From: Amphiscolops sp. MND2022
Lineage: Eukaryota
DNA length: 64,000 nucleotides
Reading direction: 5' to 3'
Assembly: GCA_964187785.1 (NCBI GenBank)
Contig: OZ076409.1
Coordinates: forward strand, 11,162,001-11,226,000
Each line of letters starts with the position of its first letter. Positions within the stretch are counted from its first letter, which is position 1. Both the position numbers and the translations under genes were made by a program. Shown here in pieces: positions 11,605-49,914 of the stretch. The notes under the pieces are model-generated. The model did no database searches. It had not been told where the DNA came from and was given only the letters and a program-made list of their open reading frames with translations.

Positions 11605-11687
11605 ACCATGGCTCTTATTATATGACATCATATTGCCCATATCTAAGTACATAAGACATAATATTTACATTACAAATATTTAGTAGA

Positions 11688-12149: not shown

Positions 12150-13271
12150 TATGAGTTTTTTGGCGATTTTTGAAGCTGGTAAGGCGACTGATTGCTGAAT
12201 AATTTAAGACAGAATGAATATACCTAAATTCCGTCGCAAGCCGAGTTAGGACGTTTTTCCGAAGTTTCCAATTTGGCGGGTAAAACTTCGGTTGGTCGTC
12301 CTGATCCGTCGTAAACTTTCCTGAATGGAATTCCATAACTGATCGGCGTCCTTTGATATTTCAGTGTTTACCCCTCATCAGCATCATTACTATGAGAGGC
12401 GTGAATGACGCTTGAGTTATTAATATCAACTACACCAGTCTCAAGTGGGTAATTAACGGGTCGCTTGTAAACAATTAACAGCATGCGTCGCAAAGTTTTC
12501 TCAAAATGGCTTCAGCCAATCAGAACTAAGCCTTGATAAATTGTAAATTGAATAATAAAATGGCGGAAAATAATAAAACTAAATAATCCCAAAATGGCGG
12601 AAATTTTAACTAAAGGGTAACTAAGGTAATTGGACGAAACGTCGAAACGAAACAAGGCAAACAGCCATAACCGGCCATTAACTAAGTAAGCTGCAGATAA
12701 TGAAGATCTTTGTACATTTCGCTGGCAGACTCCATGTACAGAATAGATATATAAATAATCAAATAACATTAGTCTAGTAAATCTTCTTCAGCCACGAACT
12801 CCAACTATCCAATTCCTTTATTCAATTTTAAATTCCAGTTGAATTCCAGTTACTTTTCACATTCACGTTTACAAATACGCTGTCTAATCATCATCTTCCG
12901 GCCTTCACGACGCCATAACTGTTGGACTTCCACACTCCAAAGCCTTCTTGGCCTTTCCTCCACCAATTCCGATCTTTCTCAAATCCCCACTAGTTGACGG
13001 CCTGATTCGGACCAGTTCTCAGCAGTCCAATTCTCCAAGAGCATGTCTTCTGACTCAGGTTGGTTTGGGTTTCCATTTTAGAACTAATTTAACTTGATCA
13101 AGGTCAAATTTGTTCACTAAATACTTCCTGCTTCCATCACTAAACACGTGACGAGCACGTTTCATTCAAATTTGTTCACTAAATACTTCCTGCTTCCATC
13201 ACTAAACACGTGACGAGCACGTTTCATTCAAATTTGTCATACACTTCCGGAAGGTTTCTAATCGCGGTAAA
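12150..13271. promoter_or_regulatory. Candidate divergent promoter between the acidic ORF and the antisense BED gene (B)
   Basis: Head-to-head ORFs; AAAATGGCGG (YY1-like) twice near 12557 and 12591; CAGCCAATCAG; CACGTGAC twice; ACTTCCGG just before the ATG at 13272. Confidence 0.45.
13104..13237. repeat. 62-bp tandem duplication
   Basis: Units start at 13104, 13166 and (partial) 13228; each full unit has CACGT-N6-CACGT. Confidence 0.9.
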
Positions 13272-17720: not shown

Positions 17721-20700
17721 TTAGTATCTGAAGTCTTCTGAGTAGTTTGGGTTAGGGTTAGGCCTGAGATTGTATTTCCCTCCTCTAGGGCTCAGGCTTT
17801 CATTTCTAGCTTCATTTTCTGATATTTCGGGCACAATAATATCATCCCCCCTTTTTGGAGACTTTTGTGCGTCGTTTTCATTCGTCAAATTTCTTTCTGG
17901 AAGAATTTCATCATTTTTTGGTCTTTCATCCGTATTCGATAAAGTTTTTTCTTGTCCTTTGGGGTAAACGGCCGGGTTCGGCCAATCAGATTTGCTGTTG
18001 CTAGCCGCTTCACTAGCTTCATTGCTTTTTGTGACGTCATGATTTAATCTTTCATTCCGGCTCCGCGCCGCGTGGTCAGCGTAGTTTGTTTCGTCTCTCG
18101 TGATTATGTAATCCGCTTCATTCTCGTCTACGTCACTGTAACTCGGTTCTGCCGGATTCGGTTGTTCGCTATTCGGCAAGCTAGTCGGAATGGGATCATG
18201 TCCTCGTGTATTAAGCTGCTCGCCAAAGTCGGTTTCCCATGTGATTATATATAAGTCATCTTGCGGAATAACAATTTCTTCGTCAGGCTGTAGCTGCTGT
18301 TCTTGGAAATTGTCCTCAAGAGGCTGATTAGGGACAAACTTTTTAAGGCGAATTCGATGTAATATTTGAGTCTTGTTTGTGTTGATTCGTCTCACAATAT
18401 AATTTTCGTTAGGTAAAACTTTTTGGACTATAAATGGTCCAACCCACCGATAATCACGGAGTGGAATTTTTGATCCTTGATGATCCGCCTTCGGCTGTAG
18501 GACAAAGCAGTAATCATTCTCCTTTAATGGAGTGGCTTTTCCCTTGCGATCATAGTATTCTTTGTACTTGATGTATGACTGCATAATATTTTGCTTCGTT
18601 TTGTCAATCAAGATTTTCGTCCGATTTTGTATTTCTTCAGCAAATTCGGTTGTTGGGTTGACCTGCTCGTTTGGATTGTTTCCAAGCTTGTGGTCGAGAA
18701 TAATATATGGAATTCTTCCATGAAATACTCTTGTTGGCTCACAACCGATGCTGGCATGGTAACTTGTGTTGTGGTTCAGTACTGCTAATGGCAAGTATTT
18801 GTGCCATTGTCGGCGATATTCTCCGCATGCCATTTTGAGATTTGTTTTCAACGTGGCATGGGTTCGCTCCAATTTCCCAATTGTTTGCGGGTGTTTTGTT
18901 GTGGCACATTTGAGTGTTATGCCCAAAATTTGTGTGATCTCCGCAATAATTGTGGACGTAAATGCAGTACCTTCATCAGTAATGAGTGTTGTGGGTAAAT
19001 ATGCATGTTTGGTCATAATGTCAATGAGCGCTTTTGCTACATTGATGACTGATGCGTCCGTAAGAGGATAGGCAAACAAATATCTAGAGAAGACATCGAT
19101 CGCTGTTAGGACATTTTGATATCCTCCGCTTGGGGGAAGATTCGGCAATAGGTCGATTTGCATGGCGTCCTCAGGTCCAAGGTCCCATTCGGGCAAGTTG
19201 AGTAATTCAGGCGTAATTGTTGCGTTGGGGACTCGCTTGTCTCTTGCGCATTCCTCGCACCGCTCTACCCTTTTTTTGACGTGTTTGGCCATTCTAGGGT
19301 AGTAATACCTCTGTCGAATTTCCTGCAGCATTTTTGAAATCCCAGGATGTTTATGGGCTGTCCCGTGAAGGGATTGGAGTAATTCCTGGAGTAAATGTTG
19401 CGGGAGTAAATGTTGCAGTCCCTGTTTCATCAAAATATTGCCTTGCTAGGATTTCGTCCTTCAGTACAATCCGTTCCAGATTGTTTGCGTAATGTCTATA
19501 TCGGGCATCCTAGTGCAGTAAATTTTCTGAATACTCTTCATGAAGCAGTTTTGTTTTCAATTGCTGTAGAACTGCATCTTTGGATTGCTCAATAATGATC
19601 TGGTTCGTTTTCCTCAATCGGACTTGTATATCGGGGTGTTGCTTGACCAGATTTGTTGACAGAGTTTGTATAGTAACAGTGGGCTCATCAGTTGCTGGAT
19701 TTTTCCTGATTGCTTCTTTCCTTGCCCAATACTGTTCTTCTGTCTCATCGTCGTCATTGGTGTAGAAGATTTGTTCTTCTTGTGACACTCCTGCGGATTG
19801 GACATTGATTTCGATTGGTAGTGTTTGTACATCTTCGCGGATTTTCATCACCAATTTGTCCTTCGGATCTGCTTTCAATCGGGACAAATAGTCGGCAGCT
19901 GTATTTTGTGCCCCTGGGATGTGTGCTTTGACAAAATTAAACTGGATGACATAATCACAGGCGTTCCACAGGGCTGGGGCTATTATTTTTGTTTGGAAAA
20001 ATCTCGTGACAGCTTTGTTGTCCGTAAGGATGATGACCAGTTTCGGCGCACCCCAGAAGGTATGTCCGAATTCTTTGAATGCAAAATAAATTGCATGGAA
20101 TTCCTTGGCATAAATTGACATTTTGATCTGTGCTGTGGTGAAAGTTTTTGATCCATATGCGACTGGTGCATATGATTTTCTGAGTGACGTAAAATTCTGG
20201 CTTGGGTCGTCTTCGATTAGGACCGCGTACCCGGCTGCACCAAAACTTGCATCAGTCATTAGTGCTATTTGCTTGTTTGGAATGGGTTGCTGTAGGGCCA
20301 AGTCGCAACATTTGTCTAGTGCTTTGTTGATTTCTTCGAATTGCTGGACTAATTCTTTCGATACTAGGACTTTTTCGTCACTTTTCAGCATCTAGTAGAA
20401 TGGGGCAAGGCGTTCGGAGAGTCTTGGGACATAATTCATGTAGTAGTTTAGGATTCCCAAATATCGTTGTAAAGCATTTTTCGACTTCGGGAATTTGGTC
20501 TTTTCCAGAAAGTTTTGCACGTTCTGTTTCTGGGGTTTGACGCCTTGTGGGGTAATAGTCCGTCCGAGAAAATCGCTTTATTTTGCACCGAAGTGACATT
20601 TGTGCATTGTTAACTTAAGGCCTGCTTCCTGAATGCATTTAAATATAGCTCTCAGGTTGGTTATGAGGTGGTGAGCATCATTGGTCGCGATGCCGATATC

Positions 20701-22917
20701 GTCCACATACTGTGCACACTGTTCCGCTTTGATGACTTTGTCGAGGTATTCCCTCATGAAGCTTGAGAATGCGGACAGTGCCCGGCTGAGGCCTTGTGCC
20801 AAACGTCTGGATGCAAATGTGCGACTGGCAAAATTGAAAGCTAACATTTCAATTGAACGTTGGTCAGCCATTGGTAGGCAGTGATATGCCTGCGAACAGT
20901 CCAATTTACAGAAAAGTTTTTTGCCTGCTAGGTGTTGGGCAGCGTCGACTAGTGTACTGACGGGATGATTATTGTTGATATAATCATCCGAGATGAGGTT
21001 GTTGATTTTCCTCAGGTCAACCAGGAGTCGGAGTTTCCCATTTGGTTTCTTTTGTGCAAATATTGGACTCGCATATTTTGAAAACGGCAAAGTTGTTATT
21101 ATGCCATATTTGTGTAACATGGCTAATTCAACTAGGATGTCCTCCTTCAGGTTGATGGGAGCTGGAAGGCTCTGGCTATAGGCTGGGGAATCGTCCTTAT
21201 TCGTCAGTTTCACCTTGAATTCCTCATTCATACCTATATCAAATCGGTGTCGTGCAAATATATCATGGAATTCCACTAGGAATTCCTCGATTTTCTCCTT
21301 CTCTTCAGGAGTAAGGGTGGAATCTTTCCAATCAAAGTTTCCTAAAAATTTTGCACGGGATTCCTCATCTTTGGTGGGGTCAAGAGTCTCCAGGTCCTGT
21401 AAGGCCTGTAATTCTCGAAGGATTCGTTTTTGTATAGGTGTGTGTTCCTCAGGATTTCCAGGATTTTCTGGCGTCAGGAGCCAATAATTTTCGGAGTTTT
21501 GTGGATTTCTATTGGTCTTGATGAGACTGCTGACATAGTGGGCTGCCTGCTCCTGGTCATTCTGCAAAAGATGCCAGGTTGATGCCGGATCTACCGGTTT
21601 GACATACTTCATCTGTTCTGGCGTCATGACAGAGAAATTGGCAATATGAAGTCCCTTTTTGAGTTTATAAGGGTGGTCTGTGAAATTGTTCACTGGTATC
21701 AATATATTGCCGTCATTCAGAGTGACCAAAGCTGGGCAAAACGTGATGTCGCCTTCCTCGTGTAGAAGGTCGCTCGGTTGCAAAATTCCAGTGACAGCAT
21801 TCTCAGGGTAGAGTAGGGAATTGGTCCTAATTGGGACTCTATCATTTGGTGGAATAGTTGTCTCAATAGGGTTGAGAATTGGTTCTAGGACGTTTGAGTA
21901 TTTGTGATCAGCTGTTTTGAGCTGCATTGAAAAGAACGGGAAATTCAGGATTCCTTGTCTCATATCCAGAACTGTATGGTTTCTCTGAAGGAACATTAGT
22001 CCGATAATCGGTCCTGTCAAGTGTTCCATTACTATAAAAATCTCATGAAACTCGATGTCACCAACCTCAAATTTGAGCTCAATGGTACTCTTAGGAGTTA
22101 CCAATTGCCCGTTAGCGACCATTATTTGGAAATTCGGAGGCGGGCCTTCTCGGATAACAGATTGTGGAGATAGGAGGCGGATTTTCCGGAGGTCCATTTC
22201 AGGGATTGCACTGGACAGTGCCCCAGTGTCTATTAATCCATCAATGGTCAATTCCCCAAAGTCCATTGGGAAATAAAGCATGCGTTTCTTGCATTTGAGG
22301 TTAATGTTGGTTGACAGAGGTATACAGTCTGGTTCACCATCTCTGGTGATGAGTATATTTTGGAACTGTTTTTCGTCTAGTAATGATTGTGGTATGGCGT
22401 CGGTGGTATTTTCAGGGTTCTCGGTTCCCAGAGGGTTTGGGAACACTGGGTGGTTTGTACCATCGTTCATCTGCCAGTTTTCAATTAGTGCCCGTGTTTT
22501 CTTGTTGTGTGTGATCGGAGGGTTCTCGTGGACTGTTTTATTGTAGAGCTCGATGTCGTCTAAAACATACTAGAATTGCAGGAGGTCCTGGTTATAGATC
22601 TCTGTATCCCAGTAGGGATCTCCGTCATAGTCCGTGTCGATGTATGTTGGGTTGTAATCATCGATCAGGGGAATGGGCCTGAACCGGGTTGTAAAGGTAG
22701 TTGTATAATCAGGATCCCAAACAGGAATTGGTTTCTGGAACAAATGGGTGTTATTGTAGGTATTGGTGATGGCTTTTTCCATCTGCTGCTGCCAGACAAC
22801 AGAGGGATAGCCCATCAATTGCTGATTGTATTGGTGAAAAGTTTTCGTTGGAGGATCCGACCTGATGTATTGTCGGACGGATATGAGTTCGCTATATTGG
22901 AGTCGTGGCGAAGTTAG
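17721..22917 (-). pseudogene. pol: Gypsy pol of element B, broken by stops and frameshifts
   Basis: Fragments 20578-22470 (LIDTGA, YVDD), 19510-20391 (TDAS RNase H) and 17721-19433 (integrase, WVGPF). Confidence 0.93.
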
Positions 22918-24605
22918 TTTTTTGACTCATCATTAGAAGATGAGGATTGGGAGCTTGATGATGTCGGCTTGGTCTGAGGTTTCTGAGCCTTTGAATTAGG
23001 CTTATTATCATTTGAGTCCTCGGGTCTAGTGCGTTTGGGTTTAAGATGTGCACCGGCACCTTGCCAACATCTTTCTTCCGGGTGGTTCTTTTTGCCACAA
23101 GTGCCACACTCCGGATATGTTTTCTTTTGAGTCGACTTGCCTTGTTGGGCGTCTTTTTCTTTTTTCTTTTCAAACTTTTCACAGTCCTTGACCATGTGGC
23201 CCTTTTTCTTGCAGTAGTTGCAAGTGATGTCCGACATTTGTTCAGTGGACAGAGGCGTTTTGGGCTTAGTTGATGAGGAAGTCATTGTTGCCATTGGTAG
23301 GTCGTCTGACTCCTCGAGAGCGTTAAGTTCCAATTCCCTCTCTAAATGAGCAACTATCTCATCGTATGAGCCATTTTCTAATCTGGCCATGTTGACGGAC
23401 CGCTTCAGTTTTGGTGGCAGTTTTGCATAAAGCAAGCTGTCAATCATTTTCTGTGCATGATCACCAAACGCCTTTTCTGCTCCCTGGTTGAATTCCTCGA
23501 GAAAATCAGGCAGTTTCATTGTATTGGAATCGAATACCAGACGGTGCCATTTATGTTTGGCGGTCGCCTGTGACTCGGGCTTGACGTATTTTCGTCTAAA
23601 GATAACTAATACGTCCTCTAGAGTTTGTCGGTTACTTGAGCTGATGTTTCTGAATGTCTGAAGGGCATTCTTCCTCAATAAAGAGTGGAAGTGATTGATC
23701 TTCATTTGCTCAGTCATTTCTGGCTGCATCTTGATCATAGTGTGAAATAGGTCTTCGAACAGCTCGAATTTTTCACTTTTGCCATCGAATGTCATGGTAT
23801 TTGAGTTGACTGGGCGTATTGTGAGTTGCTGGGCTGTCGGTCTATTCTGCATCGTAGTCAAGACGTCTGCCAGTCGAATGATGGGGTCGGAGTCAATAGC
23901 CGTAGCGATTCTCTCTTGTGCCGGGATCGTCGTGTCGAGGTTGATGTCCTCAAAGGACCTGTCGAGATGATTTCTGGATGAGATTCGTCCTGTGAGAAAA
24001 TCAGGAACTTGATTTGGAGATTCGTTGTCTCCTGTCACCATGTCATGAACATTACGGTGTGTTTTGTCACCATGTTCACTATTAAGAGTAGTCTTAGCTC
24101 TCGCGTTGTGCTGAACTTCGGAATAACTTTCCGGCCTCTCATCAGATCTCTCCCATCCTCTTCTAGTCTCCTGTCCTGAACCGGCCATAATAACGTTTTG
24201 AATCTGGGGCAAAACCTGGTTATTGATGGCGTCACTTATGGCTCTCTGGATCTGAGAACTAACACTGTACATCATCTCATCCATTTCTCTAGATATTCTA
24301 GAGTTTAATTCACTCGATAACTTATTGATCTCAGCCTGAGAATCTATGCTTGCTGAATTTTGGCCGTAACCGTCATTAATCCCTCCTTCAAGATTTCTAT
24401 GGTCGGAATGGAGATTCATTTCATCTTCCAAATTATTACTTGTAATGCTTTCTTGCCTCCTAATCGAGGTGCCATTAAGGCTGTCGTCTCTTTCTGTCCC
24501 GTTAAAGTGATTCTCTCCTAACATAATATCAAGGTTCTCAATGTCTGAGAGGAACTCTAATCCCCTAGACGTTCTTGCCTTCTTTTGTTTTCTTGTAGTA
24601 GGCAT
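22914..24605 (-). CDS. gag: Gag of element B (likely start MPTTRKQKK)
   Basis: TFDGKSEKFELFE capsid-like motif; CNYCKKKGHMVKDC and CGTCGKKNHPEERC knuckles. Confidence 0.92.
   Translation of the reverse strand: MPTTRKQKKARTSRGLEFLSDIENLDIMLGENHFNGTERDDSLNGTSIRRQESITSNNLEDEMNLHSDHRNLEGGINDGYGQNSASIDSQAEINKLSSELNSRISREMDEMMYSVSSQIQRAISDAINNQVLPQIQNVIMAGSGQETRRGWERSDERPESYSEVQHNARAKTTLNSEHGDKTHRNVHDMVTGDNESPNQVPDFLTGRISSRNHLDRSFEDINLDTTIPAQERIATAIDSDPIIRLADVLTTMQNRPTAQQLTIRPVNSNTMTFDGKSEKFELFEDLFHTMIKMQPEMTEQMKINHFHSLLRKNALQTFRNISSSNRQTLEDVLVIFRRKYVKPESQATAKHKWHRLVFDSNTMKLPDFLEEFNQGAEKAFGDHAQKMIDSLLYAKLPPKLKRSVNMARLENGSYDEIVAHLERELELNALEESDDLPMATMTSSSTKPKTPLSTEQMSDITCNYCKKKGHMVKDCEKFEKKKEKDAQQGKSTQKKTYPECGTCGKKNHPEERCWQGAGAHLKPKRTRPEDSNDNKPNSKAQKPQTKPTSSSSQSSSSNDESKN
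22917..22923 (-). promoter_or_regulatory. -1 frameshift slippery site A AAA AAC (B)
   Basis: TCA AAA AAC TAA at the end of gag. Confidence 0.8.
24029..24040 (-). promoter_or_regulatory. Primer-binding site TGGTGACAGGAG (B)
   Basis: GTTCATGACA|TGGTGACAGGAG on the minus strand. Confidence 0.85.
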
Positions 24606-25992
24606 TATGACGAAACCGGGTTGAAAACTTGAATTGTCAATTCCGGAAAAGTTAACAAAGAAATCGTTTTGAATAACTTTACTAGCATGGGTCAAAATGA
24701 ATTAATGAATTCCCCAAGCGGGGCAATGGTATATATACCGCACGGGGAGTGGCAAACGCATTTTTTGCATGACTAGCAAATCATGTGACATATAGCATCA
24801 AAGAAATTATCCCAGCGTTTACATATTTCGGGATTTTAAACTAACAATTCTCGGAAAGAAATTAATCAATTCGGTAACATCAAACAAATCATTGACTAAA
24901 CTATTTGCATCAAAGTGCCGCTGAATTGTGATCATAAGGTCACACGACCGTTCAAATTCTTGTTTTGACATCTTCAACAAGTATTCAAAAGGCGCACGGT
25001 ACATCAAATAGCATCAATTAAAATGTTTACACAGCTAATATTTCAGGAATGCTGACAATCTCGTGTCGGCACATGTCCTGTTAGCAGGCTAAACCAACTT
25101 GTATTCAACAATGTTACATGTAATAACATACATTGACTTTTGAATACTACACCCATAAATTACATGTTTGAACTGGCTAATAAATCCGGATAGGTCTTTT
25201 GGACCAATATGAACAGCAACATCATACACTGGCATTGATTGTATTAATTAGTTTCAAGGATTGCATGATTGTTTGTGACGTACTTGTAACTATACATGAC
25301 ATTTAAAGCACACTAAATAGTTGAAACTAGCGTCTGGATATTAGGTTTGAAAGAGGGCCTTAACCGGCCATCGTCCGGTTGGCCATAGCAACAAAGAACG
25401 GAAGTCAGTCAAATGGCCTTATTCGGCCTAAAATTTAAATGAGTAAAATAAAGCGCCAATTAGCTAAAATGCACGTTTAATTAGCACAGGGACATGGCTA
25501 GACAATTATTTGTTGAACTATAGCAATGTTTACGTTAATATCCTTTCATCTGAACACTAAGGCCGGAACCGGCCGTTTGACTAAAGTGTCAATCAATTAG
25601 AGATGAAATTTTGGCGCATGGCCTTAACCGGCCATTAATTAAATACAGCACTAGTAATGCTCAAATGGATGAATATGATTAGCTAATATGTTGATTCCAA
25701 GTGACGTCTCCGGAATAAGAGTTTCGTTCACTTGAACTCGTTTCCTTTACGTTGTACAGCTATATTGCTACGTATTACTTTCATAATCGCAAAGCACCTT
25801 TCAACTTTTGAACCACAATTACATTGTTTGGACCTTCAAATGTAGTTTTAACAGACTAATTTTACATATGCAAATATATATTAAGACTAGCAACATTAAC
25901 AAACGTACTATGTAATGAATAACAAAATGGCAAAAAAGTTTTTAAGTTCCGTGTTTTAACCTGATCAATAGATGGGTAGTGTTCCGGTTACA
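24041..25992 (-). repeat. 5' LTR of element B (outer boundary tentative)
   Basis: Inner end fixed by the PBS; outer end TGTAACCGGAACA resembles TGTCATGAACA; GGCC-N6-GGCC motifs at 25356, 25415, 25561 and 25620. Confidence 0.5.
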
Positions 25993-26312
25993 AACTCTTG
26001 CCCGTTTGCCGATGTAGTCACTGTCGTACCGTCACAGGCGGCAGCCTGCGACACCACTGTTTCTTGAAAAAAAAGTTGTTTGAGGCTTATGAAGGTGCGG
26101 CTATTATGCCCAGGTGGACGAGTTGATTGGAACTTATCTTCTTCATAATTTATATTGTTTGCATATTATTACTGAAATTGTTTCCAAAAACACACCTAAT
26201 GTTAATCTCAAACCTGTTTTGAGCCCAAGTTTACCATCACCCAGCTGGGCCGAAGTTGTCAAAAAACTTTTGAAGAACAAGATTTTGGAAAAACTGTAGT
26301 TATAAACATTAT

Positions 26313-28687
26313 TGTTACGACTATTCACCGGTGTAATTTTACGAGTAGTCGCAGTGGTTTTATTTTTGATTGGTGTTGAAGTTGCATTTTCCGGAATTTT
26401 TTCGGATTCAGAATCTGTTTCTTCAGTGGCTGTTATGATGGTTTGCTTTTTAACGGGAGGAGCTATTAGTTTTAGTATCTCCTTTTGGTTCTCAGCTAAG
26501 ATTTTAGCAAGATCAGACATGATCTCTTTCCTCAATGAGGACTTGATTTCCTCCAGGTTTTCAGTGAGTACTCTAGGAGATTTACTCGTTCCCGCAACGG
26601 GATTTAAGTTTTGGCTAGTTTCAGGCATTGGAGTTTCAATTTCTGTAGAAACTAATTCTTCAACAGCTTTTCTCTTCTGGCTTCTAGTAGTCATTTTTGA
26701 GAGAGAGAGAGAGGTTGTTCTTTGGAAAACTCGAATTCTTCAAAGAAAATATGGTTTTCAGAAACGAAGTATCAACGTAGCAAAGTAAAAAACAGATTAA
26801 CAGATCCACTTATTTTACATATCCCTAGGTATATATACTTTCATAGCATCATTAGTTCCTCACCTAAAAATTCCTAGGAATCCTTAAAATCGGTTTTGTT
26901 CATCAAAATTGCTTAATCATCCTTATTATTTCAACCCTTTAATTAATTGTTCACGATTTAAAATTCCTAGTCACGGCTCCCTTACAGAGTGCTTGTTGAA
27001 ATCATTTTTGTTCACTATCATCATTTCCGGTTTGATCGCGGAAAAGGCGGCAAAATGAAAGTCTAGTTGAATTTTCATCGAGAAACGCACGCTGGCGTGA
27101 TCAATGATTCATCTCGAGACTAGTGAAAATCGTCTGTTCGCGGTAAAAGAATGACAAGCAAAACTGATTACGGAAATATCTCGGAGTGATTTTGGGTAGA
27201 TGTGCTGGGAATATTTTGAAAAAAAAACAAATGATGCTGGAAAACGGTTAATACCGATCAAGAGCTGAGATAGCAAACAATATAACACAGAATCATTTTG
27301 AGCTTCTGAACTACTTTTACACGTATTGGAACATGATGGTTTGATTAATACAGATCAATGGCTCATCTAGCCCAAAGAACATAACATATTGAATGTACAA
27401 AACATCCTTTTCCAAAATGAAGGAAAGCACCTTTCTTTTAATGATTTCCTTTGTTTTAACCTGTAGTACGATCAATTTTATTAGGTATTAAACGGGGACA
27501 ATTCGGAAAGGTATTATTCCAATGTTATGATATTTTGAACATTCCTTTTCGGTTCCGTATAGCATAAGGAATATCTTGATATATTAGAACAGTTTTGATT
27601 TTGCAGCATTTCTTTTTAGTCGTTCTGTATGTTTTAACATTAGACATAACCTTGTCTTTTCACAATTTGCTCCGTAAGCGCTCCGTACGTATTAAGATTA
27701 GTTATAGCTTTTTCGCATTACAATTTGCTCCGTAAGCGCTCCGTACGTATTAAGATTAGTTATAGCTTCTTCGCATTACAATTTGCTCCGTAAGCGCTCC
27801 GTACGTATTAAGATTAGTTATAGCTTCTTCGCATTACAATTTGCTCCGTAAGCGCTCCGTACGTATTAAGATTAGTTATAGCTTCTTCGCATTACAATTT
27901 GCTCCGTAAGCGCTCCGTACGTATTAAAATTAGTTATAGCTTCTTCGCATTACACTTTGCTCCGTAAGCGCTCCGTACGTATTAAGATTAGGTATAGCTG
28001 AGCAGCGCATGCTTGCGGGGACAGAGCGGACAGCGTTAACAAATTCATTCTTATTCTCTCGCTCAATTGGCGTTGCTATGGTAACTAGGGATGGTGAAAG
28101 ACGACGCTATTGGTCCGTAAAAATAGAAACATCTACTCTTCAATCAAGCTGAGTGACGCCGTCATTACGTTGTAAATATTCTCTTAAGTTGCTTAACTGC
28201 ATTCTTAAGTGGATATTCACAACTATTCAATCATTGGAAAACAATTCCGCCATTCTCTTTGTATGTTCTTTCCTTTTAGATTGCATGAATTCCGTTGGGA
28301 CCTCGGAATTGAATTTCATTTTGGTGTTTTCATTTTAGTGTGGAAAAGAAAAAGGTCCCAAAGTTAAGAATGTTTTTAATTTGTTATTTAGATTTGTATG
28401 GGATTTTCAGCTGACGAAACCGGAAGTAACGGAACGGTCACGCATGAAAACTTTATACCGGAAGTTTCGTTCCGTCTAAAATCACTTTTGGATATTTTAC
28501 TTATCGCTTTCGTTATACTAAAATCCTTTTGTTCTGATTATTAACTCGTACTACAGTTAAACAAAGGTAAGTGATCAGTCAAAGTTTTTTACCTAATTTT
28601 GTGAGGCATTGCCATGTCCTCGCCCTCTTGCGAATTTCGGTATTCCTCGGCAACAGGAAAAATTCCGACCAGGAGCGGGTCGTGACT
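26313..28687 (-). repeat. 3' LTR of element C (contains a copy of the gag N-terminus)
   Basis: Direct repeat of 38990-41320; about 4% mismatches by eye in the first ~390 bp. Confidence 0.95.
27663..27998. repeat. 58-bp tandem repeat, ~5.8 copies, in the 3' LTR of C
   Basis: CAATTTGCTCCGTAAGCGCTCCGTACGTATTAAGATTAGTTATAGCTTCTTCGCATTA units at 27663, 27721, 27779, 27837, 27895 and 27953. Confidence 0.97.
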
Positions 28688-29798: not shown

Positions 29799-32565
29799 AT
29801 GGAAGACGAAGGGGCAGGGCAATCCTCTACCGTACCTCGTACAGGTTTCTTCAGTGGAAATGAGACAAACTTTGAGTATTCCGATGACGATGTTCTTCCG
29901 GAAGCTGTCTCTTCTGCCTCAGGTTGGTAAAATCTTTCCGTTTTCCATGGGTATTTGGACTATTTGTTTTTGGTGATCAGCCTTTATAGTCTTACCCGTA
30001 ACTCTGACGCGTCAAGCCAGATCTTGATTTTCAGTATCTCAACCTGTCTCAACTTCAGCTGCTATTACTTGTGTCACTTCCACGGCTGTAGTTGTCTCCA
30101 GTTCTTCCGTGTTGCCTCCGGTTTCAAGTGTTCTAACTGTCCGTGCTTCTGTCAATGATGTATTGACTTCTGCGCTTAATGCGTCTGGATCTGGGCCTTC
30201 ATCTGGACTTTTTCTTTCTTGCTCCGCTGAAGATCCGACGAGTGTCAGTGTTGATCCCGTTGGGAGTCAACCTCATGTTACAGATCCTGTTCCTTCTCCT
30301 ACTGGTGGCTCGGATAGTGAGTCTCAAGGAGGTGAGACTGATGCCCCCGTCGATCGAGAAACAGGTCAGTGCATTCTTATTTGTTGTTTGGGTGGGAGGC
30401 TGTATTTCTTTTCTTTCATGGTGTATTTGTACGTGTAAGTTTTTCCTTTGGAATATTTCTCCGTTAGTTATACGGATGTTGTGATGTTTTATTTTCTCCA
30501 CCTGTTGCTGGCCGTAAGATGGTGGTGAAATTTAAAACTCCTCCAAAGGGGTTTTGCTTTGTGGTCTGGTGGGAGGACGATCATCTAAAGAAGGTGTGCA
30601 TCAGTGTGGAGTCTCTTGATCAAACATTGCCCGATGCTGAATTGGTTCCTCTTTCTCGCGTGATTCACAGTCTGGATCCTCCTCAGTTTCCGTTGTGTAT
30701 CCGTGGTGCAAGTCCAACGCTGGTTCGTGTACTTGGCGAAGTACTTCCCGATGGTAGGGATTTTGTGGTCCACGAGCGTTTTACTAGTGAGGTGTTCCTA
30801 GAGTGCTTCCGTCGGGCGCACCAGAATATTTTCGGGATGCTAGAGGTCGTGACTGCAGTGGAATACATTGTAATGCGGATGCGCAGTGCTCTTCATGATA
30901 CGTGGACTGAAGGGAAGACAGTGTTGCGCCGTTGCATACGTAAGGGTTCCGTTCCTTTTGAGGATTTGCTCCATGTTGTGGACGATATAGTTGGACTGTG
31001 GGCAAACATTCGTCCTTTCGTTCGTTATACGGGGTTGCCACATGTTGAAGAACGGGTTGACAGCGTTAGTATTTCATCCATTGCTTTTGACAAGTTTCTC
31101 TTTTTGTCGATCCTGTTCTTGAAAGTTGGTTTTTTTGTTACTAGATGCGCGGTGCAGATTGGAATATAATTGCAGATGGTATGATTTTATACAAGTTTGG
31201 ACTTCTGCGATTGGTACTAACCACATGTAAGGGTTGATTTTTGCGTTCTTCTCTTTGCCATTGCCTGTTACGGATTGTGTTGGAGTTCTTGCATGAGTTC
31301 GACTGTTTCTGAGTGAAGCTGTTAATTGTATTGTTTGCCGAGTCATGTCCTCTTTTAGTTTGACTTTTGATTATCTGTGACTATCCCGTTCGTATGATTT
31401 TTTTGTGTGTGTTTCAGTTCGTAACAATTTCGTGAAGTTCTTTGGGCAGCGTGATGATTACGATTTCTGTTGTTACGGGGAAATCTGTAATTTTGTGTAT
31501 TGCTTGCTGCTGAAAACTCGATCCACAGATGGACTTCCTGGCATTCATGAGCGGTAGAGTTACAAGGACGTTGAGAAAATTGCTGGTTTCCCTGCTATAT
31601 CAGCTGATGCGTTCCTTGTGAACTACGAATTGGGCCAGGAATTGTTGAAAGGCAAGACAAGTGAAGTACAGGAGTTCCGTGTTAACTGTCGCAAGTTTCT
31701 CGATGAGTTGATTCGGGAGATTGTTTGCCATCGGAGCGTTTCTTCTGGAGTTTCTCGTGGTCTTTACTGTTTTGGTCCCGAGATTCTGCTTGATGGGGAT
31801 GGCGAAAGGGTTTTTGGCCTGTTTGCTGGTCTTTGCAAATAATTAGTTGACTGCGGAGTGCTGCCGTTGGGATCTTCGAGTGCCGCAGTTGATGAGTTCT
31901 ACAGTTATGTAGTAGAGAAACGTCGCCAGTATGCCAGGAGTGATCGATCGGGAAGTGCACTATTTGATGTTATGGCTTTTTTGTTGGGCGATTATTCTTT
32001 CCAGTCACGTCACAATGTCTTACGGATATTCAAACTGTGTTGTTTGATTGTGAGTTCCGGCCGGAGCCGTTATCCTTCCATGTTGTTGGAGCTTCCTGGT
32101 AGCGCATTGAATCAGAAGGCTGTGAATAATTGTGTCAGGATGGTGCAGTCCTATGTGTTGAGTCCGGGCTATGTCCCGAAGTTGTTCTTCACTGATTTGA
32201 CATTGGATGCTGTGCGGAGTGCTGTCGAGGATGCGGGCGTGTTTTATGTGACTGGCGATTTTGATGTGTGGAAGAACGTTTGTAGTTCCGGGTTTGCTGC
32301 GTTTGTGTCTGCTGTGAGTGCTTCATACTCAAAGGTGTTGTCGCGACGTCGAGAAGCCGAGGAAAAAGATTATACTGAGTGGAATCGGGCTAATACGCAG
32401 ACCCAGATTGACCGTCGAGCTGGCTCTAGTCGTAATGAGAGCGGCGGGAGTGTTGTGGCCAAACCCAAGAAGACAGCGGCAAGTGGTTCAAATGGAAGTG
32501 GAGGGTCCAGCTCTAAAGGTGGACCATCAAAATCTGGCAGTGAAAAGAAAACCGGCCAAGAATGA
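29799..32565 (+). pseudogene. Antisense multi-exon accessory gene of element C (homolog of the B gene; BED region apparently deleted; two nonsense codons)
   Basis: Exons about 29799-29922, 30035-30364, ~30500-31064, 31145-31226 and 31418-32565. The 82-nt exon and both flanking intron phases match B. Stops near 31555 and 31840. Confidence 0.72.
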
Positions 32566-32742: not shown

Positions 32743-35700
32743 TCATTCAGTTTTGAGTTTTTGAGTTTGAGAACTCTCCTCCGTAGTGATTGCGTCCAGC
32801 ATCCGAAAATCAGGATGTGCATTAGGTCTAGGATTAGGTCGTAGGTTATACCTTCCCGTTTTTCTAGGATTGTATCCGACAACTATAGGCGGTGGTGTAG
32901 GCGGTATTGGGGGGCTTTCTGTAGGCGGCGGCATCGTTATAAAAGGGTTATCACTGACGTCTAAGTTAAATGACGTATTATCTCCGGAGGATGTTTTATC
33001 CATCGTTGTTTTCTCATCTGCAGTTGTTATAACTGTTTCATGGTCCGTTGTATTTCCGTCTTCAGTTTGTACTTCCGTGATAGTAGCTTCTTCATTGTCG
33101 TTTTTCGTTGAGGTTCCGAACAGAACTTCTCCGAATTCGGTTTCCCAAGCTTGCGCTTACCAATCGTCATGGGTTGTTTTAACCTCAGGATCTGGAAGCT
33201 GATCTTCCACTTTGACCGTTACGTCAGGTACTCGTTGATTGGGCGCGTATAGCCTTAGGCGAATTCTATGGAGGGTTTGCGTATATCTTGTTCCCGTCCG
33301 TCTTACGACGTAATTGTTATTGGAAAGGACTTTGACCACTATATATGGCCCTGTCCAAATGCAATCTTTGAAAGCGAATTTCATTGACTGATTATCAGCC
33401 TTCGGATTCTGGACGTAGCAATACTCATTGATTTTCAATGGCGTTGCTGTCGCTTTTTTATCATAATATCGCTTATACTTCAAATATGATTGCATGAGGT
33501 TGTCCTTGGCTGACCGGTGGATTTCGGCGATTTGCTTTTGTAATTCGTCCGTTAGGTCTTCGTTGGCGTCTTTCTTCCATTCTGGCTTGAGTCCCAGTTT
33601 AATGTCCAGAATGTTGTACGGGATGCGTCCGTGGAATACTGTTGTCGTTTCGCAGCCTAGGCTTTCCTGGTAGCTTGCGTTGTAGTTCATGACTGCAATT
33701 TGTACCTATTAATGCCACATTGAACGTCGTTCTCCCGTTGATATTTTTAAGGACGTTTTTAGTGATGCGTGCGTTCTCTCAAGTATTCCAATCGTTTGTG
33801 CGTGTTTCGTTGATGCGTGACTAATCCGTATGTCGAGAGTTTGTGCTATCTGGTTTACGATATCCGATCGGAATGGTGATCCTTTGTCGGTGAGGATTAT
33901 TGTGGGTAGGTAACAATGGCGTGTCATTACGTCAATTATGCATCGGCCTACTGATCTGGCTGTCATGTCTTCCGTAGGATATGCGAAGAGGTATCGAGAG
34001 AAAACGTCCATCATTGTTATGATGTGCCCGTATCCATTGGATGAAGGCAAATTTGGTAGAATGTCAACTTCTAAGTAATCCTCTGGGCCGAAGGTAAATT
34101 CCGTGTTGCTCAGTTTTTTTGCGTATTTGTCTTGTGTCGATCCGTTTGTTGGCTATGCAGTCAGGGCAGTTGATTACCCAGGCTCTAGTTTTCCGTGCAA
34201 GTCCCGGAAAGTAGTATTTTATTCGGCTTTCTTGGATCATCTTTGTTATTCCTGGATGTTTGTTGGTTTTCCCGTGCAGAGTTGATAGGAGTTCGGGGAC
34301 TATGTGTTTCGGTATGAGGATTTGATGATGCGTGATTGTGCCATCTTCTCCGTAATATTTGCGCATGAGAACTCCATCTTTGACTATGATTCTTTCTTCG
34401 TGGCGTAGCAAATTTCTCCCTCTTGGTTCAGTTTTGAGGAGATGTTTGTCATATTCTTCGTGTAGTAGACGTAGCTTTAGTGCTTTCAGGATTGGATCTG
34501 CATCTTTTTCGTTGCGTATTCGGGCGTTTTCTTTGATTGCTCCAAATGCGTAGACTGCCGTATTGAGCGGTATATACTACTTCTGTTATTTCAGTGGATA
34601 AGTTTTGTTGTTCTTTTTCGTCCACTGCTCGTTGTTTGCTGAGAGCTTTTCTTGCAAAAGTTTCTTGTTCTGATTCTTCTTCCTCATCTGGTAAGAAAAA
34701 AAGTTGTTCTTCGTCAGCAACGTCTGTGGACTGTACGTTGATTCGATGGGTGCCGTTATAATGTCGTCTCGTAGCTTGAGCTGAACTCTTTCATTTGGCG
34801 TTAGTTCCAGGCGAGAAAGAAAATCGGCTGCTGTGTTTTGTGACCCGGCTACGTGCATAATGCGGAATTTGAATTGTAGGACGTAGTCGCAAGCGTTCCA
34901 GAGCGCGGGTGGGGTTGTCTTTGTTTGGAAAAACCTTGTTACTGATCTATTGTCCGTTAATACTAGGGTTGGTAGTTTCGTTTCCCATAGGATGTGACTG
35001 TATTCCAGGAATGCATGATAAAAGGCGAGGAACTCTTTACAGTATAATGACATTTTCAGCTGTGACGGAGAAAATACGCGGGAACCAAAAGCGACCGGTG
35101 CGAAAGTTTTCCGTTTGGAGAGTAGCTTTTTATCATCGTTTTCTTCTATCATTAGGGCATATCCTGATGCTCGGAAACTTGCGTCCGTCATAAGTACGTA
35201 TTGTTTTCCCGCAACTGGTTGTCTGAGGGCTAGTCCACATGCTTCCGCTAGGCTTGTGTTGATGGTTTTGAAGTTGTCGACTAGTTCTTCTGATATGGTG
35301 ATTTTTGCATCTGCTTTTAGGAGTTCATACATTCCAATCATCTTTTCGGACAGTCTCGGTATGTAGTTTCTGTAGTAGTTGATAAATCCAATGTATTTCT
35401 GGACTTGTTTCTTTGATCGGGGAAATCTGATTTTTGACAAAAAATTGGTGATTTTGTGATCTTGCGGTGCTACTCCGTGGGGTGTGATGGTTCTTCCCAG
35501 GAATTCGATTTGGGTGACGCCAAAGTGGCATTTTTCACTTGTGAGTTTTAGTCCGGCTTTGCGGATTCATTTGAAGACTGCTCTGATGTTCTTGATGAGT
35601 TGTTCCGTTGTGTTGGCGGCAATCCCGATATCGTCCACATATTGGGCACACTGGTCGGCTTTGATGACGGTGTCGAGGTATTCCCGCATGAAGCTCGAAA

Positions 35701-37971
35701 AGGCCGACAAGGCTCTACTAAGTCCTTTGGCTAGCCTGCGATAGGCAAACGTTCTACTAGCAAAGTTAAATGCAAGGAGTTCTACTGACCTTTGATCTGC
35801 CATTTGGAGGCAGTGATAGGCTTGTGAGCAATCTAGTTTGCAGAACAGCTGTTTCCCCGCAAGATGTTGTGCGGCGTCCGAGAGGGTGCTGATGGGGTGG
35901 TTGTTGTTTATGTAGTCATCTGAGATGAGGGCGTTGATCTTCCGTAAGTCTACTAAGAGTCGCAGTTTGCCATTGGGTTTGCGTTGCGCGAAGATGGGGC
36001 TAGCATAATTCGAGAATGGGAGAGTTGTGATGATCCCATATTTGTGCATCAGTGCTAATTCTACCGTGAGGTCGTCTTTGAGGTTGATGGGTACAGGGAG
36101 ACTCTGGGTGTATACCGGTTTGTCATTTTTGGGGGTTAGGCATACCTTGAACTGGTTGTTCATTCCGATGTCCAGTCGGTGGCGTGCAAAGATGTCATTG
36201 AATTCAACTAGGGTAGACTCTAGGTTTTCACGGTCTTCTCCCGTTATTAGCGAATCATTCCATTTGAATAGTGAAAGGAATTGTGATCTGGATTTTTCGT
36301 CTTGTTTGGGGTCCAGTTCTTCTAATCTTTGTAGTTCGCGTAGTTCTCTCAGAATGCGTTGTTGGATGGGTGTGTGTTCCGATTCATCTCCGGGATTTTC
36401 GGGAGTTGGGAACCAGAATTTCTTTTCTGTTTGTTCTGACGACTCAACTTGCATCAGTGCATTGACGTACGCAACAACATCGTCGTGTTCGGCGAGTAGA
36501 TTGAGGGCTGCTATATCTACTGCTCGTATCGATTTCGTTTCTTCAGGTTTCAGTATTTGTAATTCTGCTAGTTTCGTATGTGGTGTTACTGTATAGGGGA
36601 AGTCTGTGGTGTTCGCTATCTTTATCGCGACTCGTTTGTCTCGGGCTGTGGTTATTGCTGGGGCTACTATAAGTTTCGCATTTTCATCGAACTGTGGTAG
36701 AGGTTGAACTGTCCCAGTTATTGAATGGTCGTTGCTTGCAGTAATAGACGCGTGGATGATCCGTGTGGCTTGCGCTGGTATGGTGTGTTTTTCTTCCGTC
36801 TTGATAGTGATGGGTTTGGGGTTGCACTTTTGTCTTTCGTCCTTTAGGGCTAGAGTTATTTGTATTTTAGGAAAGTCTATTGTTCCTTGTGCAGTATCTA
36901 GGATTGCGGAATGTTTCCGGAGGAATGCCAGGCCGATGATTGGGTAAGATGTTTTGGTCATGATGATGAAGGTCTCTTCGAACGCGTAGTCTCCAATTTT
37001 GAACTGCATTGTGTATGTCGCGCGGGCTTTTTCAAGTTCGGTGTTGGCATATTGTATCTTGAAAGGGGGCGGAGGTGCCTTCGCGATTATGGTTGCGTTG
37101 GCTTCAGTTTATATTTTGTCTGCGTCTCTTTCGCTGATGACGTTGATGTAGGCTCCCGAGTCAACTCGTGCATCAATTCTAGTGTTTTCAAAGTCAAGAG
37201 GGTTAACGAGCATTCTTTTCTTCTTTTTGAGGGTAATTGCTGACTTTAACGGAATGTAGTCGTCGTCTTTGTCATGTTGTATGAATTCTTTTATGATATT
37301 GAGGTCATATGGTAATTGTTGTGGGCATTCCGTTACTTCGTCGTCGTCATGAATGTTGTCCTGAGTTGGCAATTTGGGTGCTGCTTTTGGGGGTGATACT
37401 GTTTGATTGGCTTTTGTGCGCTGTTCTTTTTCTTGTTGTGTCCATATTGTTTTATCCTCGATGCAGATGATATTCTCTGCATCTGTTGGTGTGGACGTGG
37501 TGGTGACGGGTATTGGCGAGGACTGTGTTGTCTTTTTTAAGATTGGTGACGGTGGTGATGGTAAGGTTGTACTCTCGGTGCATTGGGCTTGAGGATTTGA
37601 AACTTGAGTTTTGAAAGAGAGTTTGTTTGTGTCATAGATGGTTGGTTCGTCCCAGGGATCACATCTATAGTCTCTATCATATATGTAAATGCGTTCGGTC
37701 TTTGATTCTGGTAGGGGCCTTTTTAGTGTCGCGTAGTTATCGGGTGATTCTGTTATCCATTGGGGTAGTGGTGTTGGGTCCTCTGGGTGTCGGGCATTAT
37801 GTCTGAGTATCATGCCTACGTTCCAACGACGTTGCCAGTCTTGGATGGGTTCTTCATTGCATTCTGTGAGGAAGTCTTCTTCATACCTATTGGGGGGGTC
37901 TTCTTTTGTGTACGCCCTTGCGTCTACCGTTTCCCCGAAGCGAAGCGGAGGCGCGGCGTTCCTAGTTTTTT
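32743..37971 (-). pseudogene. pol: Gypsy pol of element C, fragmented
   Basis: VDSGA protease; YVDD RT (35567-37009); TDAS RNase H (34586-35440); integrase pieces 33157-34411; GRYNLRPNP tail. Confidence 0.93.
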
Positions 37972-39371
37972 GGCTGGATTTCAATAGAAGGGATTGGTTG
38001 TTCGCCAATTTGGTTTGTGGGTATGGCGAACTCGTGTCGTTTCTTCCTAGGATCGTTCGCCGCATTAGCTCCGTACCAGCAATTTTCAGTTTTGTGGAGT
38101 TTCTCACAGGTGTCGCATTTTGGTTTGGGTGGTTCATTGGTGTTGGGAATGCCGTTCTGTGCTTTAGTTTCGTAGTAGCAATCTTTTCGCAATTTGCGGC
38201 ACTGTGCTTTATAATGCCCCTGTTTGCCACAGTGGATGCAATTCCCTCGATGGTTGAGTTACTTTTTTGGTTCCGGTGGGACGACGTCGACCGTATTGAG
38301 TGGTACTAGCGTGGTTTCGTCTGGGGTTCCCAGACCATTAAGGCGCATCTCTCGTTCAAGATGTAGGACAATGTCGTTATAAGGTTTGTTCTCGAGGTAG
38401 GCTCGGTTAAGAATCTTTTTGACGTGGTCCGGCATTTTGGCGTATATGGCCTTGTCTATGAATCTTTGTGCTTCTGAGCCGAACGCTTCTTTAGCCGTTT
38501 TTTGCAGTGTGTCCAAAAATTCATGTAACTTTTGCTTGGTTGGGTCAAAATGTAGCGAATCCTATTCGCATTTCGCTTTGGCCGAAGATTGAAAATCTCC
38601 GAAGCGCCGTTTATACGCCGTAATTACCTCCTCTAAGTTATCTTTTTTGGCATCGTCCAAGTTGCAATATGCTTGTAGTGCATTGCCTCGTAGTAGCGAG
38701 TGGAAGTAGTTGACTTTTTGGATTTCTGTTAGATGTGGATACATTTTTATGTTGTTTCGAAATAAATCCTCGAAAAGTTCGACTTTTTCGGACTTACCAT
38801 CAAACACGGGCAGAGATGCGGTGAGGGCTTTTGGCATTGGAGGTTGAGGTGGTGGATGGATTTCCGGCTGGGGAGCGAATAGTAGTCTTGATGTCGAGGG
38901 TCGTTCGTTGGGTGGCAGGCTTTGTGGACGGTGTGGTCGTGTTTTCTTTTCCCCCAGATTTGTGGAGTCATTGAGGACTCCTGTCACCATGTTACGACTA
39001 TTCAGCGGTGTAATTTTACGAGTAGTCTCAGTGGTTTTCTTTTTGATTGATGTTGAAGTTGCATTTTCCGGATTATTTTCGGATTCAGATTCTGTTTCTT
39101 CAGTGGCTGTTATGATGGTTTGCTTTTTAACGGGAGGAGCTATTAGTTTTAGCATCTCCTTTTGGTTCTCAGCTAAGATTTTAGTAAGATCAGACCTGAT
39201 CTCTTTCCTCAATGAAGACTTGATTTCCTCCAGGTTTTCAGTGAGTACTCTAGAAGATTTACTCGTTCCCGCTACGGGATTTAAGTTTTGGCTAGTTTCA
39301 GGCATTGGAGTTTCAATTTCAGTAGAAACTAATTCTTCAACAGTTTTTCTCTTCTGGCTTCTAGTAGTCAT
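37962..39371 (-). pseudogene. gag: gag of element C, fragmented
   Basis: MTTRSQKRK start inside the LTR; PVFDGKSEKVELFE; knuckle remnants; ends CCA AAA AAC TAG (slippery AAAAAAC at 37965-37971). Confidence 0.9.
38978..38989 (-). promoter_or_regulatory. Primer-binding site TGGTGACAGGAG (C)
   Basis: Abuts the LTR end at 38990, which is independently defined by the LTR duplication. Confidence 0.92.
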
Positions 39372-41320
39372 TTTTGAGAGAGAGAGGTTGTTTTTTGGAA
39401 AACTCGAATTCTTCAAAGAAAATATGGTTTTCAGAAACGAAGTATCAACGTAGCAAAGTAAAAAACAGATTAACAGATCCACTTATTTTAAATATCCCTA
39501 GGTATATATACTTTCATCGCACCATTTGTTCTTCACCTAAAAATTCCTAGGAATCCTTAAAATTGGTTTTGTTCATCAAAATTGCTTAATCATCCTTATT
39601 ATTTCAACACTTTAATTAATTGTTCACGATTTAAAATTCCTAGTCACGGCTCCCTTACAGAGTGCTTGTTGAAATCATTTTTGTTCGTTATCATCATTTC
39701 CGGTTTGATCGCGGAAAAGGCGGCAAAATGAAAGTCTAGTTGAATTTTCATCGAGAAAGGCACGCTGGCGTGATCAATGATTCATCTCGAGACTAGTGAA
39801 AATCGTCTGTTCGCGGTAAAAGAATGACAAGCAAAACTGATTACGGAAATATCTCCGAGTGATTTTGGGTAGATGTGCTGGGAATATTTTGAAAAAAAAC
39901 AAATGATGCTGGAAATTGGTTAATACCAATCAAGAGCTGAGATAGCAAACAATATAACACAGAATCATTTTGAGCTTCTGAACTAGTTCTACACGTATTG
40001 GAACATGATGGTTTGATTAATACAGATCAATGGCTCATCTAGCCCAAAGAACATAACATATTGAATGTACAAAACATCCTTTTCCAAAATGAAGGAAAGC
40101 ACCTTTCTTTTAATGATTTCCTTTGTTTTAACCTGTAGTACGATCAATTTTATTAGGTATTAAACGGGGACAATTCGGAAAGGTATTATTTTAATGTTAT
40201 GATATTTTGAACATTCCTTTTCGTTTCCGTATAGCATAAGGAATATATCAGAACAAGGAATATATCTTGATATATCAGAACAATTTTGATTTTGCAGCAT
40301 TTCTTTTTAGTCGTTCTGTATGTATTAACATTAGGCATAACCTTGTCATTTCACAATTTGCTCCGTAAGCGCTCCGTACGTATTAAGATTAGTTATAGCT
40401 TCTTCGCATTACAATTTGCTCCGTAAGCGCTCCGTACGTATTAAGATTAGTTATAGCTTCTCCGCATTACAATTTGCTCCGTAAGCACTCCGTACGTATT
40501 AAGATTAGTTTCAGCTTCTTCGCATTACAATTTGCTCCGTAAGCGCTCCGTACGTATTAAGATTAGTTATATTTTCTTCGCATTACAATTTGGTCCGTAA
40601 GCGCTCCGTACGTATTAAGATTAGGTATAGCTGAGCAGCGCATGCTTGCCGGGACAGAGCGTACAGCGTTAACAAATTCATTCTTATCCTCTCGCTCAAT
40701 TGGCGTTGCTATGGTAACTAGGGATGGTGAAAGACGACGCTATTGGTCCGTAAAAATAGAAACATCTACTCTTCAATCAAGCTGAGTGACGCCGTCATTA
40801 CGTTGTAAATATTCTCTTAAGTTGCTTAACTGCATTCTTAAGTGGATATTCACAACTATTCAATCATTGGAAAACAATTCCGCCATTCTCTTTGTATGTT
40901 CTTTCATTTTAGATTGTATGAAATCCGTTGGGACCTCGGAATTGAATTTCATTTTGGTGTTTTCATTTTAGTGTGGAAAAGAAAAAGGTCCCAAAGTTAA
41001 GAATGTTTTTAATTTGTTATTTAGATTTGTATGGGATTTTCAGCTGACGAAACCGGAAGTAACGGAACGGTCACGCATGAAAACTTTATACCGGAAGTTT
41101 CGTTCCGTCTAAAATTACTTTTGGATATTTTACTTATCGCTTCCGTTATACTAAAATCCTTTTGTTCTGATTATTAACTCGTACTACAGTTAAACAAAGG
41201 TAAGGGATCAGTCAAAGTTTTTAACCTAATTTTGTGAGGTTTTGTCATGTCCTCGCCCTCTTGCGAATTTCGGTATTCCTCCGCAACAGGAAAAATCCCG
41301 ACCGGGAGCGGGTCGTGACA
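38990..41320 (-). repeat. 5' LTR of element C
   Basis: Direct repeat of 26313-28687; TG..CA termini. Confidence 0.95.
40354..40631. repeat. 58-bp tandem repeat, ~4.8 copies, in the 5' LTR of C
   Basis: Units at 40354, 40412, 40470, 40528 and 40586. Confidence 0.97.
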
Positions 41321-49896: not shown

Positions 49897-49914
49897 TAAT
49901 TTTTCATTTGTTCA

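Follow-up and report, generated by a model that had tools for sequence, protein, structure and literature searches.

An intron-bearing antisense gene in three Ty3/gypsy-like retrotransposon lineages of Amphiscolops sp. MND2022

How two accessory genes carried by divergent retroelements can still agree on the position and phase of their introns, when their proteins have almost ceased to resemble each other, is the question raised by a 64,000-nucleotide stretch of contig OZ076409.1 (hereafter the window), which is part of the 1.07-Gb eukaryotic assembly of Amphiscolops sp. MND2022. The minus strand of the window holds three long terminal repeat (LTR) retrotransposons, here called A, B and C, in each of which Pfam places a zinc-knuckle gag followed by aspartic protease, reverse transcriptase (RT), RNase H and integrase, the arrangement of Ty3/gypsy (Metaviridae-like) elements. 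Between pol and the 3′ LTR, and on the strand opposite to gag-pol, all three carry a further gene, which appears as long plus-strand open reading frames (ORFs) on the lower-coordinate, that is, downstream side of pol (13206-17662 in B and 30468-32565 in C). A first-pass annotation of this DNA had proposed that intron positions are conserved between the antisense genes of B and C, that the antisense orientation shields these introns, and that the gene is a selected and long-resident one. The analysis described here makes it probable that A, B and C belong, as separate lineages, to a single Ty3/gypsy-like clade, whose ancestor would already have carried an antisense protein-coding gene between pol and the 3′ LTR, with its own transcription and spliceosomal splicing, and with its introns copied along with the element.

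At the centre of the comparison stands an 82-nt exon found in both B and C, all of whose coordinates (Table 1) proved correct on re-reading. In the two elements it is preceded by a phase-0 intron with a GTTAG donor and followed by a phase-1 intron with a GTAAG donor (I3 and I4 in Table 1), and in both, with the split codon as the start of the count, the motif G-E-x-C-x-F occupies residues 21-26. The two encoded 27-residue peptides share W6, I9, D11 and K17, and score 25 in an ungapped BLOSUM62 comparison, a value that 1 of 100,000 shuffles attained; a tblastn search with this exon alone reached only E 0.39. None of the I3 and I4 lengths is a multiple of three in either element, and the frame is continuous only after their removal.

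The first-pass annotation had also named what would speak against its proposal, namely other copies devoid of the splice dinucleotides, and in this regard the borders turned out to be kept in most rows of both families. The copies fetched from the same genome comprised 18 C-family rows (97-70% identity) and 11 B-family loci (98-76%), the counts below being made on 12 rows for B and on 14-15 rows for C, with the additional C rows L014a/b and L016a/b standing outside the later alignment; the sample represents 8-18 of the hundreds of copies of each family. For I3, the GT was present in 12/12 B rows and 14/15 C rows, and the AG in 10/12 and 15/15, respectively. For I4, the corresponding figures were 11/12 (the remaining row having GC) and 15/15 for the donor, and 11/12 and 14/15 for the acceptor. 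Over all borders, 10-12 of the 12 B rows and 13-15 of the 14-15 C rows were intact, L014a/b and L016a/b retained all four of them, and the nine A rows read from the alignment blocks had GT and AG throughout (9/9). Moreover, intron lengths drift between copies by one to a few bases, in steps that are not multiples of three, and the length of the 82-nt exon varies by 3 nt only, in L014a/b and L022. The donor of I3 reads GTTAG in 12 of the 12 B rows and in 14 of the 15 C rows, with an unusual T at the third intron base; such a conserved donor may reflect weak, regulated splicing, or a truncated isoform produced upon intron retention.

The kinship between the genes of B and C extends along their full length. 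For this comparison each copy was translated by codons, with a natural copy of its family as the anchor and an X at each break, and hhalign then matched the spliced products of B and C from one end to the other, over 714 columns at 23% identity (E 9.6e-33, probability 99.9%). The window copy of C has lost about 1.1 kb at 30549/30550, and with it the 5′ end of its 621-nt exon, intron I1 and the zinc-finger exon, all of them retained by its siblings; in the four near siblings aligned to the window (4/4), the gene is contiguous with pol. The zinc-finger exon of the C siblings (Cx2Cx16Hx5H) aligns to the end of B exon 1 at 25-27% identity, and C34, C37, H54 and H60 of the finger are invariant in the alignment of 26 B and C rows (26/26). 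The finger exons of both elements terminate in phase 0 and before a GT, six residues past an invariant tryptophan. From I1 to the GTTAG intron, both genes have 621 nt of coding sequence, split by I2 into 486 and 135 nt in B and forming one exon in C, after which the 82-nt exon follows in the two of them.

A third view of the gene is provided by element A, whose copy of it lies upstream of the window except for the end of the last exon. ORF reading gave for it a finger exon, two exons of exactly 486 nt and of 196 nt, and a final one reaching position 542 of the window. The A protein aligns with that of C (632 columns, E 6.8e-7), and in this alignment I1, which follows the finger exon, and the phase-1 intron (I4) coincide exactly; in the A/B alignment, the same is true of I4 and of the extra intron of B (I2). 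The GTTAG intron is missing from A, where the two exons that flank it are fused and 21 nt shorter. A tblastn search with the B and C exons against the region downstream of A pol gave no match at E up to 0.1, which ORF reading and hhalign later showed to be a false negative, and an alternative frame of A resembling the 82-nt exon peptide (W..L.C.E) was discarded on the basis of splice phases and of the ratio of nonsynonymous to synonymous substitution rates (dN/dS). The original idea of conserved intron positions can be extended, as I3 and I4 are common to B and C together with a third intron, I1; not all introns are common, since I2 does not occur in C nor I3 in A. The kinship among the accessory genes follows the order of pol, with B and C closest and A more distant: the pol proteins of B and C are 50-56% identical, whereas the identity of A to either of them is about 47% for protease-RT and RNase H, with 32-46% for integrase.

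In each family, exons are better conserved than introns. Far C subfamilies have 73-82% identical exons and 45-57% identical introns, the values being 79-90% and 57-75% for far B subfamilies, and 86-91% and 73-84% for the A family. The dN/dS of the window copy against far subfamilies amounts to 0.04-0.10 in B and 0.07-0.21 in C, and a six-frame control revealed that frame 0 of the plus strand is alone in joining a low dN/dS (0.03-0.15) to only 0-1 stops. For the A family, dN/dS is 0.14-0.53 in the model frame, and the other frames have either higher values or many stops. A dN/dS of 0.03-0.2 in the plus-strand frame only shows that strong purifying selection acts on the exons. Altogether, frame-specific selection, the conservation of exons over introns, full-length homology, the identical exon lengths between common introns and the third lineage bear out the selected and long-resident gene that had been suspected, and show an antisense gene that has been under purifying selection in the three lineages since before their split.

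The copies in the window are nonetheless dead. Apart from the deletion in C and the two stops of its last exon (Table 1), exon 2 of the window copy of B lacks one T from a T-run near 15356, which shifts the frame, and its last exon has a 9-nt duplication near 16657 and a 1-nt deletion near 17486 that leaves the family stop out of frame. The exception to this decay is the A copy beside the window, whose four exons are open. The lesions differ between copies, and the gene as such was present wherever it was sought among the fetched copies: in 11/11 B loci, 18/18 C rows and 8/8 A loci.

How could introns survive in an element that moves through RNA? Splice signals are effective on their own strand and not on the opposite one. 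The antisense gene would be transcribed independently, against the element, and its transcript spliced by the host spliceosome, with the GT-AG introns going unrecognised in the genomic RNA of sense polarity, from which reverse transcription proceeds, and being carried in this way into each new insertion. The retention of antisense introns by the sense genomic RNA would account for their presence in every copy and for positions and phases that have outlasted nearly all sequence similarity. The proposal that antisense orientation shields the introns is supported to this extent, as it follows from strand-specific splice signals and fits the introns found in every copy examined. The protein itself most likely acts as a nucleic-acid-binding accessory or regulatory factor, which would be needed for the spread of the element, a mode of action also proposed for retroviral antisense genes and for the antisense ORFs of plant elements.

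Several observations weigh against this picture of a spliced antisense gene maintained by selection. Transcription and splicing are predicted from DNA, at four junctions in B and two in the window copy of C, and no spliced or long family protein was found among database proteins of 691-2000 residues. The GTTAG donor of I3 is a weak match to the usual donor, and in B an in-frame CAG at 16171-16173, 6 nt downstream of the AAG acceptor, offers an alternative acceptor that would leave a 76-nt exon. The hhalign comparison of A with B is weak (E 2e-4, 601 columns, probability 46%). Each B and C copy of the sample is interrupted, within the part that was examined, by one or more stops, frameshifts or deletions, and some exonic indels restricted to single copies are not multiples of three (23 nt in L013; 7, 2 and 16 nt in L016), as expected of dead copies.

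These lesions are an argument for regarding the gene as a fossil, real once but by now without function in all the lineages of this genome, the more so because both window copies are broken and no sampled B or C copy is free of damage. Nevertheless, the lesions vary from copy to copy, as expected of decay after insertion, and dN/dS remains low between young subfamilies (0.10-0.36 for B rows at 94-98% identity, 0.14-0.63 for C rows). Besides, copies of the A family reach 98-99% identity, the LTRs of the A window copy are 99.8% identical, and only 11-18 of the hundreds of copies per family were sampled. Altogether, a loss of function in all lineages seems unlikely.

Still further from the evidence is the idea that the gene is a separate transposon or host gene fragment nested in the elements, even if language-model look-alikes of the protein point to hAT transposases, the genome is rich in true hAT elements (PF05699 scored 150 matches) and nested insertions are common in the window. 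A nested insertion would have to explain why the same place and orientation recur in three lineages whose pol is only 47-56% identical (RT and RNase H), why the gene is found in every copy fetched, why its divergence follows the order of pol, and why its profiles do not resemble those of seven hAT ORFs, complete in length, that this genome contains, all of which makes it highly improbable. The least credible alternative is that the conserved blocks are cis-acting sequences of the sense RNA or DNA, with GT and AG at their borders by chance. Within the sense RNA the region does fall into the 3′ untranslated part, a usual location for signals of this kind, and the minus-strand frame that shares third positions with the coding frame also has a low dN/dS (0.09-0.22). 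That frame, however, holds 7-23 stops versus 0-1 in the plus-strand frame, substitutions concentrate at plus-strand third positions, the 82-nt exon changes its length by 3 nt only, and protein homology persists at E 1e-32 even though the DNA can no longer be aligned.

What kind of protein the elements carry can be told in part. From the finger onward it has about 800 residues, with a Cx2C...H...H finger followed by a large conserved region, to which B adds a long, disordered-looking N-terminus. It belongs to a widespread family, as two word-index searches returned 163 and 184 matches, and an exhaustive search of 1.8 billion representatives 666 clusters, all of these database relatives being single-exon ORFs on ENA contigs. 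Two B-like relatives from other contigs, P0335 and P0364, have intron I1 open and in frame, and were called as a read-through from the finger exon into exon 2; the insert is unconserved, as expected of an intron. No Pfam match (E up to 1-10), be it to TRP28 (PF04195), PMD, zf-BED, Dimer_Tnp_hAT or any other family, was obtained for any B or C exon or for 36 relatives, and a profile search of PDB sequences gave no match either. Two AlphaFold models were poor (predicted local confidence, pLDDT, of 50.9 and 51.7); the first of them had no Foldseek match at E up to 0.001, and a wide fold comparison (VIA) returned only middling helical matches, with Hermes transposase at rank 6 (Z 6.1, root-mean-square deviation 3.8, 91 residues), a Z within the noise for helical models.

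A lead towards an origin comes from the language-model look-alikes, which for the finger part are BED fingers and the RNase-like families of FAM200/ZBED5, and for the C-terminal part the hAT dimerisation domain. Such an order, with BED finger and RNase-like region N-terminal and dimerisation C-terminal, is the one expected for hAT proteins, and, as in hAT transposases and their domesticated relatives (ZBED, FAM200/GTF2IRD2-like), the conserved region has its Cx2C...H...H finger close to the N-terminal end; but neither Pfam nor profiles give a match, and hhalign of the three family profiles against the seven hAT ORFs found none (probability ≤0.8%, E 0.07-0.48). A hAT origin is only a lead, because the Pfam, profile and Foldseek comparisons gave nothing firm.

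With regard to the history of the introns, the comparison of the three lineages, made without an outgroup, suggests that C lost I2 precisely, as 621 is the sum of 486 and 135 and both A and B have I2. A loss through reverse-transcribed spliced RNA is one possible and attractive reading. Joining both threads, the gene could be the relic of a hAT-type transposase (BED-like finger, RNase-H-like core and dimerisation tail) captured by the Ty3/gypsy lineage before the A/B/C split and now serving as a DNA-binding accessory factor, with I2 lost in C when a reverse-transcribed, spliced antisense mRNA recombined into the element. We regard this full scenario as unlikely; were it true, the exact loss of I2 in C would amount to DNA-level proof of splicing at that junction.

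With respect to the elements themselves (Table 1), a first look at the same genome gave 293 candidates for the C family, 1554 for B and 753 for A. Element A is a recent insertion of about 18.7 kb, as judged from the 99.8% identity of its LTRs along 1651 bp. Its antisense gene stops at 542 and its pol ends at 3194, and the interval is taken up by some 2.6 kb of T-rich sequence without a long ORF, the distance from antisense gene to pol being about 230 nt in B and about 590 nt in C. No LTR pair for element B was found by searching within the window; its ends (11715-13271 and 24702-26312) may have been lost or broken up when A and the C-like fragment inserted next to them. About 160 nt past the family stop of the B gene, and some 70 nt before the end of the opposite-strand pol, an AATAAA on the plus strand (17648-17653) is a possible poly(A) signal between the convergent genes. 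At the 3′ end of C, the repeat extends beyond the LTR into a second 5′ untranslated region (UTR) and the start of gag, which indicates that C is trailed by a truncated tandem copy sharing the LTR; a tandem array with a 58-bp unit occurs in both C LTR copies (27505-28152 and 40196-40785). Across positions 1-40000, which cover the three elements, the plus strand is strongly T-rich (AT skew -0.2 to -0.36), so that the sense RNA is rich in A, the T-rich strand being the one that encodes the antisense genes. Further along the window, a non-LTR (LINE-like) element on the plus strand (49900-53130) has two adjoining ORFs with endonuclease/exonuclease/phosphatase and reverse transcriptase domains.

Table 1. 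Coordinates of the three retrotransposons and of their antisense genes (negative positions lie upstream of the window)
Feature	Positions	Strand	Details
Element A partner LTR	-6999..-5349	-	pairs with 10064-11714
Element A antisense gene, end of last exon	1-542	+	rest upstream of the window, locus L030
Element A gag-pol	3194-9876	-	placed by Pfam
Element A 5′ LTR	10064-11714	-	99.8% identity with the partner LTR, which lies 7 kb upstream of the window
B exon 1	13272-15260	+	start codon kept in relatives (MD..G..P..FI); Cx2Cx16Hx5H zinc finger at about 14799-14879
B intron I1	15261-15333	+	73 nt, phase 0; common to C and A; GT 11/12, AG 12/12
B exon 2	15334-15818	+	485 nt in the window copy; 486 nt in 10/11 siblings, 488 nt in the eleventh
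B intron I2	15819-15916	+	98 nt, phase 0; common to A, not in C
B exon 3	15917-16051	+	135 nt
B intron I3	16052-16167	+	116 nt, phase 0; GTTAG donor (GTTAGA); common to C, not in A
B 82-nt exon	16168-16249	+	AG at 16166-16167 before, GTAAGT at 16250 after
B intron I4	16250-16319	+	70 nt, phase 1; GTAAG donor; common to C and A; CAG before 16320
B last exon	16320-17490	+	family stop codon 17488-17490
Element B gag, protease-RT, RNase H, integrase	17721-24701	-	four ORFs
Element C 3′ LTR, then truncated second 5′ UTR and gag	26313-28686	-	94% identical to 38990-41319
C 621-nt exon, 3′ part	30551-31064	+	5′ end deleted in the window copy
C intron I3	31065-31144	+	80 nt, phase 0; donor GTTAGT; AG at 31143-31144
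C 82-nt exon	31145-31226	+	between the GTTAG and GTAAG introns
C intron I4	31227-31417	+	191 nt, phase 1; GTAAG donor (GTAAGG); CAG before 31418
C last exon	31418-32565	+	two window-only stops: TAG 31555-31557, TAA 31840-31842
Element C gag-pol	33157-39482	-	six ORFs, broken

LTR elements with accessory genes in antisense have been described before, and the present family adds to that class. HBZ of human T-lymphotropic virus type 1 (HTLV-1), a small bZIP protein encoded by a spliced antisense gene that starts in the 3′ LTR, regulates its retroelement; the plan of a spliced antisense gene would be common to both, and no homology is expected. In plants, Ty3/gypsy elements such as maize Grande (gene23), rice RIRE2 and Silene Retand carry antisense ORFs for TRP28/PMD proteins between pol and the 3′ LTR, which, like the gene described here, run opposite to gag-pol, are conserved across their lineage and are thought to be regulatory (PMC7264820, PMC11963269, PMC4408406). 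They differ from it in that TRP28 and PMD give no Pfam match in the present gene, which moreover has at least four introns, whereas the word intron does not appear in the main text of PMC7264820 or PMC11963269, both of which deal with these plant ORFs; the host of the present gene, moreover, is probably an animal. In Botrytis cinerea, brtn has been described as an additional antisense gene of Boty-like elements (Zhao et al. 2011, as cited in PMC8365987), again of the Ty3/gypsy type but fungal. A closer parallel for the introns is found in TART, a telomeric non-LTR element of Drosophila, whose antisense-only introns are carried through retrotransposition and keep a similar size and spacing in divergent subfamilies (PMC1636488). 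For the spliced antisense RNA of TART the same account (PMC1636488) reports no long ORF, whereas the exons described here belong to an LTR element and encode a strongly selected protein. The literature searched, the coverage of which was incomplete, yielded precedents only from plants, fungi, retroviruses and TART, and among them no antisense gene that both encodes a protein and has introns in an animal LTR element.

For the biology of these elements, the finding means that a retroelement can keep a multi-exon gene over long evolutionary time by carrying that gene backwards. Intron positions and phases become usable in this way as markers of deep kinship where the accessory proteins are only about 23% identical, and, with I2 absent from C and I3 from A, the gains and losses of introns within a mobile element can be studied here in a clean system. 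Such a widespread and unnamed family, with no Pfam domain, is also one that annotation pipelines miss, its exons being likely mistaken for host genes or junk.

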